DNA of 20,000 nt from Neolecta irregularis DAH-3 (taxonomy: Eukaryota). The translations under genes and the position numbers were made by a program. Below the pieces are notes generated by a model. The model saw only the letters and a list, made by a program, of their open reading frames with translations. It did no database searches and had not been told where the DNA came from. Location: NCBI GenBank assembly GCA_001929475.1, contig LXFE01000976.1:51120-71119 (forward strand). The letters are read 5' to 3'. Below are positions 7,158-15,757 of this stretch, in pieces; position 1 is the first letter of the stretch; the number at the start of each line of letters is the position of its first letter.

Positions 7158-8577
7158 CTATGAATCTACTTTCACGACAGCTGACTGTGGCACGGCGGTA
7201 TTCGAGATCATCAAATACAATAAATCCGGTGTTGTATCGCCGTACTTGCTCTGCCCTTTCAAAAAGAGTTCTTCATTGCCATCTTCATCGACATCTGTTA
7301 TCGGCTTTTCGGACAATTTGCGGTTGGTTACAAATATGGCATCATTCACTCCTTCCAGTTTCTTCGTGATAGATGGGGGAACATTAGGAATTTTTGACGG
7401 AGGCGGTTTTTTTCGAATGACTTCTTCAGTGATTCCAAATCCTTCGTCTCCAGGCCGTCGCAAGACGAAATATTCGTCCACCCAATCATAGATATCTTGA
7501 ATTGTCTTTCGCGTACTAATGTGCGATTTTTCTTCTTGTTAGTGTTTGTTTTCAGGGCACTCTGCCACCTCTCTTGAGAATCATCTTGTCCATCATACTC
7601 ATAAGATGAAACTTGAGTTCGCCAAGACTTGCATTATTGGCTTTGGAAAAGTTTATGTAGTGTTCAACGGCGCTCCATGGCGGATTCTTGTAACCAGCAT
7701 ATAACGCAGGATTATCGAGAAGCGCTCGCGCTGACATTACGCCTAGGGTCGGCACTTCTTGTGAGGAGTATTATACCATCACAACCAGTATACTTGGCTA
7801 TTCTCAATGCATCTTCGAGCGAGTCGACATCCCCATTAGCAACCACTGGGATCGAGACACTTTCTTTAACAATCTTGATAGCATCGAGATCAACCGGAAC
7901 AGATGACCGTGTATTTTTCGTTCTTCCATGGACAGTAATGTAATCAGTTCCAGCGGCTTCTAGTTGTTTAACAAATTCAACCGTAAGTCTACAGCATCAG
8001 TTCAAAGATCGCAAACTGCCATGCTTCAAATCGCTATGCACTCGAATCTTGACACTCATGCACATTCCAGGAACAGCCTTTTTGACTTCTTTGACCATAT
8101 CACAAACGAACTGGGGTTCGCTCATCAAGTGCGCACCGACACCACTCTGACAAGCCCAGCTCTGAGGACATCCACAGTTTAAATCGATACCGTCAACAAA
8201 CTCCTTGATTCGAAGGGCTGATTTTGCGAGTTTGACGGGATCGTTTGTGGCAAACTGGGCAATTACCGGTCGATCTGCTGCGTTTGTTGTGAATTCTTCA
8301 AATGGCGGACGGACCAGATATCCATCGCAGACCATCATTGGCGTGTAGGTTATATCGGTAGCAAAATTCGATACTAGATTTCGAAACTGTCTATTTAGAT
8401 AAATAAAAAGGTCGTTCATACCGCCAGCTTCGAATACCGCACCATTGGAGCTGCAAAAAACGCAGGTCTACCTTCATTTCGTGCTTTTTCAAATATCTTT
8501 AATGGATGGTGGTCGGGATTTCGTGGTGGACATTCCGGTTGTAAATATTCATGGTCTTCTAATTCTGCTCGAGTCAT
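7158..8577 (-). CDS. DUS4: tRNA-dihydrouridine synthase, Dus4-like
   Basis: APMVRYSKLAFR, GIDLNCGCP, VKIR, ITVHGRT, ANGD, GVMSARALLDNPALYAGY. Introns 8387-8421, 7989-8024 (GC-AG), 7743-7776, and 7532 or 7535 to 7568 (AAG acceptor). The C-terminal tail and the stop at 7158 are less certain. Confidence 0.88.
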
Positions 8578-8647
8578 GATAGTTGGAGTCACAGAAAACT
8601 TTTTCGACTGACTACCAAACTTTATTTTCGCAGATCTGAGTAGTAGC
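8578..8647. promoter_or_regulatory. 70-bp bidirectional promoter region between DUS4 and KTI12
   Basis: Divergent ATGs at 8577 (-) and 8648 (+); contains GAGTCACA (8586-8593) and GAAAACTTTTTCGA (8594-8607). Confidence 0.6.
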
Positions 8648-9683
8648 ATGCCACTCTTGGTGGTTACTGGATATCCATCCTCAGGGAAAACAACGCGGGC
8701 AGAACAGATTAGAGAGGATCTAGTAAGACGGATTGTGGGATCGAAGGAGGATAGAGAGAGGAAGTTGAAAGTTCATATTGTTAACGATGATATCCTCAAA
8801 ATTCCAAAGGACGTTTATAGAAGTATTGTTTACCTGACGATTAAGCTAATGGACCTTTGCAGAAGCGAAGCTTGAGAAAGCCGCGAGAGGGTCTCTGATG
8901 TCATCAACTGGTCGATTACTTACAAAAGACGACATCGTTATATGTGATGGATTGAACTATATAAAAGGCTTTCGATATCAATTGTACTGCGAGTCAAAAG
9001 CCCTCGAAACACCTCATTGCGTAGTAAGTCAATAGTTGCTCTTGAGCTTTACTTATCTCAAGGTCCATGTTGGAGTACCAAAAGAAGTATGTGAAGAGTG
9101 GAACAGGTCAAGAGGAGACGAAGGCTACCCCGAAGACATGCATGTCCAGAACCGAAAACAAGGACTTATCTGGTAGATTCAATGAATTGTTAATGCGGTA
9201 CGAAGAACCTAATTCAGCAGTACGGTGGGATTCACCATTGTTCACTGTCTTACACATCGACGATCACCCGCCGTACGATGCTTTATGGGATGCATTAGTA
9301 CACGCTAAAGTCAAACCTCAGAATGCAGCTACTGTTCTAGTATGTCAATTATTGCTGAAACATTCCTGACAGAATCGAAACCTGCTGCTGCAACAGATTA
9401 CTTGTACGAACTCGACAAAACGTCTCAGGAAATTGTAGATCTAATTATAGAACGACAAGCCATCAATGCTGGTGGGGAAGTTTTGGTGGAGGGTATGGTA
9501 AGAATCCTCAGTTTTAAAAATAGTTAATTGGTATAGATATTACAGCTGCCTGCGCGTAACATTCCTCTGCCCCAACTACAGCGTTATCGTCGTCAGTTCA
9601 TATCTTTAAACCGTATGCATTCGTTTGAGAAGAAGAGAATTAAGGAATTATTTGTAAATTTTCTAAATACCCAGTTTGAGTAA
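8648..9683 (+). CDS. KTI12: Elongator-associated ATPase Kti12 (PSTK-like)
   Basis: MPLLVVTGYPSSGKTTRA P-loop, NYIKGFRYQLYCE, RYEEPNSAVRWDSPLF, YLYELDK, LPQLQRYRRQFI. Introns 8823-8862, 9024-9062, 9140-9176 (GC-AG), 9340-9377 (GT-CG as sequenced), 9498-9536. Confidence 0.93.
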
Positions 9684-9704
9684 ATTCTTTATAATTTTAC
9701 ACGT

Positions 9705-10246
9705 TTACATGTGAGTAATGTTGAAAACCTGCGCATAAATATAGTCAAACCTCCTGAATGTGGTCTTTGAATGAATGCCTTTTCCCACGATTCTACAATA
9801 TCAACACATCAACACAAGATCGTACATATGCAAATGATCGTCTCCTCTTGATTTGCATAGCTGCACTCTTTCCTCAACTTTTGCTTTTGCTTTCTCCACG
9901 TAAAGACCGTGAAGATCAATTTCTTCCCACTGACTATATTCGTTGTTGTGTCGAAATACATAATCTGCTGCTTGTTGATTCAAGCTTCCCATCTTTCGCC
10001 CATGTGCTTTTCCCTGTTCGCTCAGTTCATGAGCCCGCGCTCTGTCTCCATTTCTATATGCCACTTGCGATTGGGAAAAACATTGACTTCGTAAATCACC
10101 TTCTTTATGCGCGAGGTCTCGGATTCGTTTATACTGAATATTATAGACGTCTAAAGCTAATCGCGCAATTCGGCATCATCGGTATGATCTTGAAAATCGG
10201 GCGACGCCAGTCGGTGTGGTAGAGATTGAGGCTGTGAATGTTGCAT
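9705..10246 (-). CDS. Small DUF1771 + Smr-domain protein, possibly degenerate or truncated
   Basis: YKRIRDLAHKE...SQVAYRNGDRARAHELSEQGK (DUF1771-like), EIDLHGLYVEKA and HIIVGKGIHS (Smr). Intron 9793-9825 is canonical; the first intron ends at 10134 but lacks an in-phase GT donor; the sequence after GKGIHS does not resemble the usual Smr end. Confidence 0.7.
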
Positions 10247-11178: not shown

Positions 11179-14100
11179 TCACATCCACCACATAAGATTG
11201 ACAAGCTTATCTGAGATCTTCTTCAAAGGCGCAGGTTCATGATCTCCAGAGGCTCCGCTGTTGATACTCTGGGTCTCTGAATGATGCTGTAAGAGAAGTG
11301 AACCTTGATTGCCAATAACATGAGCATGGTAAATCGGAGTTACTGTGGTCAGTAAATGTGCGTCGGTAGTTGACACACAAATAGAAACAGATGTAGTAGA
11401 TCGGCCAAACGTATGGCACATGGCAAAAATTGCATTTTGAAGAGGTTCTGCCTTGAACCCATTTTCATCTTTGATAACATCTGTATTTGTGAGTCAAGTC
11501 CTGCATCTAGAGAGCATGCTGTAGTAAGTTGGTCGCGCGGTGCCTTGAATGGCAGTATGAGAGTTCAAAACTTGTGAAAGATCAGTAGTAGTTAACATAA
11601 GAACTCACAGAAATCGAAATCCACGGGATGCGTGACGACTTTCTCAATTAAAGTCCCTGGGACAAGATTTCCATTCCTATCGGCTGCTTCGGAAGAGACA
11701 GGGAAAAACCTGGTATGATGACGCTGATGGATTAGTGTAAATAGAGCTCAGGATAATTACTTTGGTCGCAATAACAACAGTAATCCTTGGTCGAGAAATT
11801 TTCAGTTGCGTACATGCATCTTTATCATTGTCATCATTAGAAGTATAGGTATGAACCTTCAATGTCTTTGACCTCAATAGCATTAACTTGCGCATATTGG
11901 CCGTCGGAAACACCATCTCGGAAATAAACAATTCTTTGAGGATGTTTTTTGTTTGAAATGATCCATTGCTGTATAATTTCCTTGGCCATGTCTAAATCTT
12001 TAGCTTAATTGGAGATAAACGAAACTCTTCATGTCGGCGATCATTTCCTGTCGTGATGTCTGAGTTCCAACACGGCCAACCCATTTACAGGTCGCAAAAT
12101 CGATGCATCCAACAACACTAGGGAGAGAAGACTGCTGACTACCAGGAGCAGCTATTGCATAAGAACGCAAATAGAGTTTAAAGAAATTTACCGTGCGAGA
12201 CATCCGCGCCAAGAACAAGCTACTAGATCAGCATTATAAAAACTCTTAATCTCACGGTAGGTTTATCTGCGAACGGAGTATTTGCAACCGGAAGCTTATT
12301 GTTAATACCTCCAAGTTTCTGGTTGACTTTCATGATAACGTTTCGGCAGAGATTGGGTCGGGCCTATTGCTAAATCTAGTTCTAATTGGATTACATACAT
12401 CGCATAAATTTTTAGCAGTAATCACTTGCGAAGTAATCCCAGCTGTATAAAATATGCTTTTTACGAACGGATATAGTTGACTATTCTTGTCTTCGACAAT
12501 GATAAATACCATCCCAATTGGTTTTCCGCTCTTCTTCTGAGTATTAACGAGGAAACTCTTCACATCTTGTGCGAGATCAGCGACTGCAGGATTGAGCGTA
12601 GTGAATGCAGGCGGCGCTGTTCCAAATGACATACCTTAAGTTAATACTGAGTCAAGAGAATTACAACCTGCGTGCGAGGCAGAATTGGTAAGTTGGTCAA
12701 CAAAAGGCTTCGCATCTTCATATCCTCTAATTCTTCGGGCATAGGATATAATTGCCCAGCTTAAGACAGATTTAGGCTAATTCGTGAGATTCTACCGTAG
12801 CGGAAAGACAAGTACCTCGATAAAGGACAAATCTTGCTGTTCTCTATCCCATTTCCCGAAAATAGGCTTGAAGATATGGGATGCACGCGCTTTTCTCGGG
12901 TTTCTAGCGAACTCGAGGCTAGGTGGGCTAAGTAAACGTGCATTTATCTTGACCATATTATGCGAAATCTCCATTCCGAATTCTTTGAGATATGGATCGT
13001 TCTGCCATTTCAATGCTTCTACGTTCTTCTTGATTTCGGCTTTTCTCTTCATGGGACCCTTTAGATTAGAAACTATTAAAAATGACAGAAGAAAGCTACC
13101 ACACAAGCAAATTTGATCAATTCGGCCATTTGAGACGCGTCCGGCTGCGATCCAAGGGCCGTCATCTTGTCAATTAGAGACCTTTCAACTCGGTGATATA
13201 CCCCGTCGATATTCACAAAACATAATTCAAGGGGAATCGCAGTTCGATTTTGATTTTGTACAATCACAACTGGAAGATTGGGATATTTGAGGTTGTATTT
13301 CCATGCATCTTTGAAATGTTGAGCAACGGTGACTTTCTGTTCGTCCTTGATGAACGTGAGCATGTTGGCAGGCCTTCCAAGATTGTTAAAAGTATATATC
13401 TTTTTTAACGAGACATTGTCTCGCTTCATGTATGTTGTGTAAAACTTCATTTTACAAAACAGACTGTTGATTCGTCTGAGCTGATCTTGGGGCATGCCTC
13501 GGGCTGGATCACTGTTGGTAACTCTTTCTATAAGGCTCATCATGGAAACTTCACCGATATTCTGCCAGAAAACTCGGGTGGTGATATCAACGATTACATT
13601 CAGATTACCTGCTGGTAAGCTCCCGGCGTAAATCAGGAGGAAACCCAATGTCGGACGGACTGATTGATAAATGCCTCGCCTTGCCTGTACAAGTCTTGGT
13701 AGTTGTAAGGATTCAAAGTTATCTGGGTAAAAGCCTCTGCCGACAGAAGTAAATCTTTCTGAAGGACGTTGTCGCAATAACTGTGAAATCACATTGACGC
13801 CTATATTGTCAGATAGTCATCCTGTCACATGTACATTGAATAACAGAATCATCTTTGGCGTAATTTCTTTTAAGATATTTGCTGAGAACGTCCATATTGA
13901 TCTCCGCGACCTTTCGAATCGTGACAAGCAAATCTGATTTGCTCGCAATTCCGGATACCGACACAACAATCCCGTTTCCAAATGGCAAAGGTCCCAAGGA
14001 CCAAGCAAGTTTGTTTTCTTGATTGTCAGTAACGAGTAGAAAAGCCTGGTAGATACCATCGTAGATCACACGGCGCTTTTCGAAGGCCGCTTGTACTTGC

Positions 14101-14888: not shown

Positions 14889-15757
14889 ATGTCCAATCCC
14901 CCTTTCCTTGAAGCAGTTGCGCTTGATACAATCTCCTCAGTTTCAAACCGCTCCATATTCTCTGCAAAACTCCATTCGTCTTGGTGTATCGGCTCTGTGC
15001 CTCATGGGGGATACCAGTCGTCGATTTTAATTTCAGCTTTACAGAAACATGTTCGACACCACCATTCACAAACACCGGATATCTTCCACATCTCGATTCG
15101 TTTTCCAAACAAATCAGATGTTGGGCCAGCGGAATTTGTGGTCGTCCCGTTAAAACTGGGCCGAACTTACTGTTATTTTCAAGTCAAGTTACGTCAAAAT
15201 AACAAAACAAATATCGAAGCTACCGCCGTTTTTGGAAACTTTGACATAGAGATCGGCCCATCCTTTCCTCCGATTGGCATAACACCCATCAGTATTCGCA
15301 GTAACTGCAAGAAAACTGAACCAGCATTCCAGGATTTTCGAAAAGCAGCGAAATTTCTTGAGTATCGCGTACCCGAAACAGTTGGAGAGCGAGAGATTTT
15401 ACAGTGGGTTCGCTTCAATGATTCCACGCCCATAAATGATACTGGGCTGGGCTTTATCTGCGATATGGTATCCTATTCGGTATAAGCGCATGACTGAAAG
15501 AACAGTTTTCTCCTCCTGATTGGATTGAATCTAACAAGATCCACTGGTTTCCAACACTTGTTTTAGAGATCCAGTTTCGTAAGAGGTTCCAAATGGAATG
15601 GGTGCATGTGTTTTCGAAGACACGGATGATGCAGAATGGGCGCTTTGACCTTGATGTTGAAATTTGCGGGGAGAATGGCGAGTTACTTGCGCTCAGTCGA
15701 CATATGTGCATTGTATTGGATTCTTCTCGAAATACTGGCAATATCTCGCGTCTTTAG
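14889..15757 (+). CDS. Hot-dog-fold acyl-CoA thioesterase-like protein with C-terminal PTS1 (SRL)
   Basis: WCIGSVPHGGY, KLGRTY, LGFICDM, WFPTLVLEIQFRK, NGRFDLDVEI, GELLALSRH; one intron 15468-15505; ends ISRL*. Confidence 0.87.

Follow-up and report, generated by a model that had tools for sequence, protein, structure and literature searches.

Intron 4 of the KTI12 gene in the window, i.e., the whole 20,000-nt stretch of DNA that we analyzed, very probably undergoes a real GT-CG splice. The full statement, that this is a U2-type intron with a CG end, that it is precisely removed to give the only productive mRNA, and that its 3′ splice site is selected by a distance mechanism, is in our judgment likely. 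The sequence-only reading of this DNA had put forward a true CG 3′ splice site set by its distance from the branch point, and this is now supported by a junction in read-derived contigs, by colinearity with the protein family, and by the modal branch-to-3′ distance of 8 nt among the introns of the window.

The KTI12 gene and its spliced form

KTI12 is an Elongator-associated tRNA-modification factor, and its gene in the window contains five introns of 37–40 nt each, as read from the joints of a single read-derived contig (Table 1). Our profile scan covered the single translations of exons 1, 4, 5, and 6, and Pfam PF08433 (KTI12/PSTK-like P-loop) matched in these at profile positions 1-47, 130-182, 184-221 and 231-271 of 271. 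Exon 1 encodes GYPSSGKT, the N-terminal P-loop. In intron 5, the proximal TAG (end 9536, +9 from the branch A) is taken and an in-frame CAG 9 nt downstream (end 9545) is unused, so the protein retains ILQ, three extra residues.

Table 1. Window positions of the KTI12 gene, its introns, and the splicing elements of intron 4
Feature	Position	Strand	Description
KTI12 coding region	8648..9683	+	six exons, 280 aa; ATG 8648, stop TAA 9681-9683
Intron 1	8823..8862	+	40 nt, GT..AG; X2 joint
Intron 2	9024..9062	+	39 nt, GT..AG; X2 joint
Intron 3	9140..9176	+	37 nt, GC..AG, donor GCATGT, end TAG; X2 joint, both = 0
Exon 4	9177..9339	+	ends ...NAATVL; profile 130-182; X2 piece 9177-9339, 0 mismatches
Intron 4	9340..9377	+	38 nt, GT..CG, phase 0; X2 joint 9339|9378
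5′ splice site GTATGT, intron 4	9340..9345	+	read from the sequence; donor phase 0
Canonical in-frame alternative, GTCAAT..CAG	9344..9396	+	53 nt; from enumeration; absent from X2 contig
Putative branch motif CTGAC, intron 4	9366..9370	+	candidate branch A 9369, from motif and spacing
Unused AG, the sole one inside intron 4	9371..9372	+	+3 from branch A; not an X2 joint
3′ splice site TCG, intron 4	9375..9377	+	G9377 is the last intron base, +8 from branch A
Exon 5	9378..9497	+	starts KPAAATDYLYELDK; profile 184-221; covered by X2 contig piece
Intron 5	9498..9536	+	39 nt, GT..AG; X2 joint 9496|9536, cut reported at +1

Two public runs, X1 and X2, carry the region; both belong to one study and both are recorded as “DNA?”, a guessed type. 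X1 has all of the sampled words and X2 a fraction of 0.69, and the organism labels of the two runs differ (A for X1, B for X2). We aligned their Logan contigs, which come from an assembler separate from the one behind the window, to window positions 8600-9700. X2 is represented there by a single contig of 2397 nt (depth 128.9) that is without any of the five KTI12 introns. In this contig, 9339 directly adjoins 9378, reported as “skips 38, GT..CG” with both = 0, i.e., the two sides have no letters in common, which fixes the position of the cut and leaves no microhomology at the joint. All 908 of the 908 aligned exon bases are identical to the window, without gaps or other letters (0 of each), and the depth is 0 in the bin 9340-9376, which means that no X2 contig there keeps intron 4. 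The missing introns lead us to infer an RNA origin for X2; five segments cut out exactly at splice-type borders indicate that the joined form descends from a spliced message whatever the run label, and it must do so even if X2 were DNA (e.g., a cDNA library). A regulated switch between full-length and truncated KTI12, which had also been suggested for this intron, found no support in the contigs, which contain a single spliced KTI12 form but drop rare forms and give no isoform proportions or splice efficiency.

The X2 contig as a whole spans about 7170-9756, extending leftward of 8600 by 1433 nt, into the divergent Dus gene, and past 9700 by 56 nt, and the neighboring KTI12 and Dus transcripts seem either to overlap or to have been merged in assembly.

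The base that separates TCG from an ordinary TAG, position 9376, is C in the genomic contigs derived from X1, where the contig covering 9267-9700 at a depth of 426 has zero differences from the window; X1 is possibly the assembly's own source, and its C9376 is in that case not independent of the window. Upstream of this contig, the X1 contigs split into short alternatives at 9236-9296 (+), one of which, 60 nt long, has a single other letter. This bubble near 9266, within KTI12 exon 4, has a depth of 122.5 vs 550 and suggests a polymorphism or a repeat at that place.

Splice options of intron 4 and conservation across the junction

Examination of intron 4 identified a GTRNGT-type donor, a YTRAY motif at the usual position, and precise removal, all as in U2-type introns, while the terminal AG of that class is lacking, the intron ending in CG. 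Its donor is the same hexamer as the donors of the introns INO1 a and AGO 4. CTGAC is the sole YTRAY-type motif in the intron with its A at 25-31 nt from the 5′ end (29 nt), and its A9369 is the putative branch nucleotide. A CTGAA further upstream has its A at 9358, just 18 nt from the 5′ end and so out of this range, which makes it an unlikely branch for a frame-shifting CAG ending at 9372. The only Gs located 3′ of the candidate branch A are at +3 and +8. The intron closes with AATCG at 9373-9377, and the exon reopens at 9378 with AAA (K). The donor at 9340 with its phase of 0, the CTGAC, the AG beside it, and the AATCG ending at 9377 had all been picked out in the sequence-only reading, and each lies exactly where it was placed.

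Enumeration of the splice options bore out what had been said of the internal AG. Joining GT9340 to AG9372, i.e., splicing 9339 to 9373, shifts the frame and meets a stop after 21 codons, and joining GT9344 to AG9372 creates an in-frame TAA. Splicing 9339 to 9378 leaves an open frame for a KTI12 of 280 aa and restores the C-terminal domain, as had been claimed, and this is the join present in X2. These three earlier statements were right, but the list they formed overlooked a canonical in-frame pair, GT9344..AG9396. No other GT-AG pair leaves an open frame; its use would replace KPAAATD by VY, with a loss of five residues.

The join between 9339 and 9378 is colinear with the protein family, the KTI12 profile passing from position 182 to position 184. 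A search of longer proteins with exon 4 returned 23 KTI12 proteins; every named source among them is a fungus, and the best identity was 63%. None of the 23 contained an exon 4 identical to the one in the window. We aligned the 18 of these that were at least 230 aa long (5 shorter ones were dropped) with both gene models. The 19-residue spacing of the GT-CG model, from the conserved N.AT motif to the conserved L..LD/E motif, was exact in 17 of the 18 orthologues, with several ascomycete KTI12 proteins reading ...ATVLKP..S..YLYELD across the junction; the product of GT9344..AG9396 needs a gap of 5 residues against the same 17. The eighteenth protein (P0020) diverges directly after ...QATVL, at the exact site of intron 4, and looks like a gene model that reads through an unspliced intron at this position. 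This suggests that the position of intron 4 is common to other fungi.

A metagenome scan with exon 4 for the orthologous intron in relatives gave 271 pattern matches, 1 of which was confirmed (L001). This candidate was rejected as a KTI12 gene: it is high in GC, carries long uninterrupted ORFs, looks bacterial, and has only a short DDHPPYDA-like stretch in common with exon 4. The protein searches identified no close relatives of the source organism, an ascomycete, the best KTI12 match being the one given above and the named Dbp3 matches, besides the window's own, being 55-65% identical, with the best in Saitoella complicata (65% over 88% of the query).

Introns of the window

Our survey covered 21 introns of the window, 5 of which are transcript-verified (those of KTI12). 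The other 16 were modelled junction by junction from reading frames, tblastn with relatives, and colinearity with Pfam profiles, and they belong to the genes for transketolase, INO1, Dus, acyl-CoA thioesterase, and Argonaute; a first automatic intron scan, with 107 candidates, was dropped as too noisy. The junctions left out as ambiguous were AGO 3 (several donors, all ending at the same AAG), AGO 6 (two options), the third one in Dus, and the stretch 11741-11852 of the Argonaute gene; the LIM, Smr-domain, and CDC14-like genes are also outside the survey.

The intron architecture of the window is unusually compact and uniform, with lengths of 33-43 nt and a median of 37 (n = 21). A heuristic branch motif was assigned in 20 of the 21 introns, the exception being AGO 4. 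The distance from the 5′ end to the branch A is 25-31 nt (29 in KTI12 intron 4), and the distance from the branch A to the 3′ end is 6-13 nt, with both median and mode at 8 (n = 20), which is also the value in KTI12 intron 4. The 3′ ends are AG in 20 introns and CG in one, KTI12 intron 4, in a sample that is biased, as it was this same intron that drew attention to the window. Relaxed recognition of position -2 is thus not general in the window, with 1 of 21 acceptors non-AG. Branch-close AGs are skipped elsewhere, at +3 in TE a and at +5 in AGO 5a, both of which are inferred introns. In TKT a and KTI12 intron 1, TGs in range, at +8 and +10, are bypassed and the splice falls at an AG further on, so that AG is clearly preferred and CG is taken only when no AG is available.

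Several individual introns of the survey deserve description. The inferred thioesterase intron at 15468-15505 (+) has the geometry of KTI12 intron 4 with a canonical end: in its tail, CTGAAAGAACAG, an AG at +3 is skipped and a CAG at +8 is taken. The first Dus intron, 7989-8024 (-), reads GCATGG..TAG over 36 nt, with the GC donor inferred, as no GT donor fits. GC donors are present in 2 of the 21 introns, a frequency that, in this small sample, is high compared with the roughly 1-2% of GC-AG introns reported for fungi. A supposed second non-AG case, at an Argonaute junction, was discarded when it resolved to a micro-exon flanked by two canonical introns. This micro-exon, 12192-12219 (-), is 28 nt long and encodes the LVLGADVSH motif of the Piwi domain; the flanking introns are 12220-12255 (36 nt) and 12152-12191 (40 nt), and in the former a TAG at +5, the use of which would put a stop in frame, is skipped.

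Alternative explanations, proposed mechanism, and comparison with known systems

The real splice at CG has to be weighed against explanations in which an ordinary site is concealed. The transcript could have come from a minor TAG allele or nucleus (A9376), with the major TCG allele not productively spliced, but we regard this as improbable. The X1 bubble near 9266 does indicate that the sample is not perfectly homogeneous, so that a minor A allele at 9376 is possible, and the organism label of X2 differs and contigs lose rare variants; however, X1 has neither a bubble nor a contig break at 9376, though the contigs do break at the variant near 9266, the X2 exon bases agree with the window throughout, including the major form at 9266, and if the major allele could not produce KTI12, a conserved gene would be lost. 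That position 9376 is in truth an A, making this an ordinary GT..TAG intron, i.e., that the C is the assembly or sequencing error allowed for in the sequence-only reading, is very unlikely. One base change is enough to make the site canonical, and the confirmation from X1 may be non-independent if it is the assembly's own data, but the contigs built separately from the X1 reads agree with the window over the whole of 9267-9700 with no other letters. We give equally little credence to a library or assembly artefact, in which the 38-nt skip would be due to reverse-transcriptase template switching or to mis-assembly. Reverse-transcriptase artefacts are known to yield false non-canonical junctions (PMC7072748), but template switching needs a short repeat and there is none at this joint, the contig is deep and has four further introns precisely removed, and the joint has a consensus GTATGT at its start and gives back exactly the spacing of the orthologues.

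The remaining alternatives accept splicing at this locus but assign it differently, and both are extremely improbable. The productive splice could be the canonical GT9344..AG9396, with the GT-CG form as a by-product, and this pair does stand alone in offering a GT-AG intron with an open frame. It is, however, absent from the X2 contigs, would delete five residues from a segment that does not vary in length among 17 of 18 orthologues, is longer at 53 nt than all 21 introns surveyed, and uses an AG located 27 nt past the putative branch A. The event could also be outside the U2 system, either as a U12-type intron, a class that tolerates varied 3′ ends, or as an Ire1/tRNA-ligase (HAC1-type) intron. 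U12 introns have short branch-to-3′ distances, and TTCCTGAC at 9363-9370 is loosely like their branch consensus. The U12 5′ splice site consensus is RTATCCTT, whereas the 5′ end here reads GTATGTCAA / GTATGTCA and matches the donors of the neighboring introns; the minor spliceosome has reportedly been lost in Ascomycota. As for a HAC1-type intron, the region 9320-9400 folds no better than shuffled sequences (z = -0.33), the twin stem-loops are lacking, and the boundaries carry spliceosomal motifs. An Rfam search of the window gave no match, and with no special fold and no Rfam family there is nothing that indicates another mechanism.

For the genuine GT-CG splice, we propose a mechanism in which KTI12 intron 4 would be an ordinary U2-type spliceosomal intron in everything except its last two bases. 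The introns are tiny and the branch A would be close to the 3′ end, so that after the first step few nucleotides could reach the active site. The sole AG, at +3 from the candidate branch A, would be too close to dock, presumably through steric exclusion, and G9377, at +8, would be the only G in the permitted zone. By docking there, G9377 could keep the known non-Watson-Crick contact of the last with the first intron nucleotide (G-1 with G+1), with C instead of A at -2 being tolerated; the A at -2 reportedly pairs with the branch A in the active site. The CG site would most likely have arisen by an A-to-C change in an ancestral TAG. Such an evolutionary mutation had been raised earlier as an option, and it is a likely origin that is compatible with use of the CG.

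Non-AG acceptors ending in G are also present in animals, where GT-TG/NAGNAG-type acceptors are located within a few bases of a canonical AG and produce alternative isoforms. KTI12 intron 4 resembles these in its non-AG acceptor ending in G but is unlike them in that no usable AG is within range. GT-CG introns are themselves a rare class that is already known, at about 0.02% in curated annotations. For example, the manually curated introns of Ganoderma lingzhi include 19 GT-CG vs 89,855 GT-AG, i.e., 0.0206% (Table 1 of PMC11590231), and Drosophila melanogaster FlyBase r6.04 contains 8 GT-CG introns, 8 of 8 with RNA-seq junction support (Table 3 of PMC4528330). Compared with the introns in these tables, KTI12 intron 4 has the same terminal dinucleotides, with the GT kept, G as the last base, and transcript support. 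It differs from the Drosophila cases, all 8 of which are described in PMC4528330 as having a similar alternative splice nearby, in that its CG is the only productive acceptor, in a conserved gene of single-copy type, with no canonical partner seen. Across 130 fungal annotations, GT-AG introns make up 98.7%, with greater flexibility at the 3′ site than at the 5′ site (PMC7072748).

The closest parallels in spacing are found in yeasts, as described in PMC10711555. Saccharomyces cerevisiae without Prp18 uses “BG” 3′ sites (C, G, or U before G) and sites at branch distances as short as 7 nt, compared with a shortest natural branch-to-3′ splice site distance of 10 nt in this species, and Prp18 and Slu7 are dispensable when that distance is short (PMC10711555). 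Docking via the first intron nucleotide was proposed in this prp18-null study (PMC10711555). KTI12 intron 4 is like the BG sites in having a non-A at -2 and a G at -1 within 7-10 nt of the branch A; it is unlike them in that the BG events are low-level errors in a mutant and mostly non-productive, whereas the KTI12 event is natural, apparently dominant, and productive. In Debaryomyces hansenii, the predicted branch-to-3′ splice site distances are mostly 7-8 nt, comparable to the median of 8 nt in the window, and the part of PMC10711555 covering this species contains no report of a non-AG acceptor, in contrast to KTI12 intron 4. Searches of a limited library for GT-CG, GU-CG, and non-AG sites in fungi returned no paper on a KTI12 intron, and searches of the same limited kind returned none on constitutive CG acceptors in short-intron fungi. 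The KTI12 case stands apart from these systems as the sole productive acceptor of a conserved gene, among ultra-short introns, and in a context that makes the choice understandable.

A wider proposition, that in this ascomycete lineage, which is sparsely sampled, a terminal G and a distance of ~8 nt from the branch A, acting as a ruler, are the main determinants of the 3′ site, with a naturally relaxed reading of position -2, is in our view rather unlikely. If it were true, the organism would be the wild-type equivalent of budding yeast without Prp18, possibly through the alteration or loss of second-step factors (Prp18/Slu7). Non-AG acceptors and GC donors would then be used across the genome at frequencies well in excess of the usual ~0.1-1%, and genes of this kind would be broken systematically by standard gene finders.

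For the splice at CG itself, the significance is that of a natural, productive, and apparently constitutive non-AG 3′ splice site in a conserved housekeeping gene, with a context that accounts for the choice, there being no usable AG and one G at the modal distance from the branch. This supports the view, outside mutant yeast, that a terminal G and the length of the branch tether can suffice for exon ligation. Gene finders restricted to GT-AG introns would truncate or mis-model this KTI12 gene, which argues for permitting non-AG acceptors when annotating fungi with ultra-short introns.
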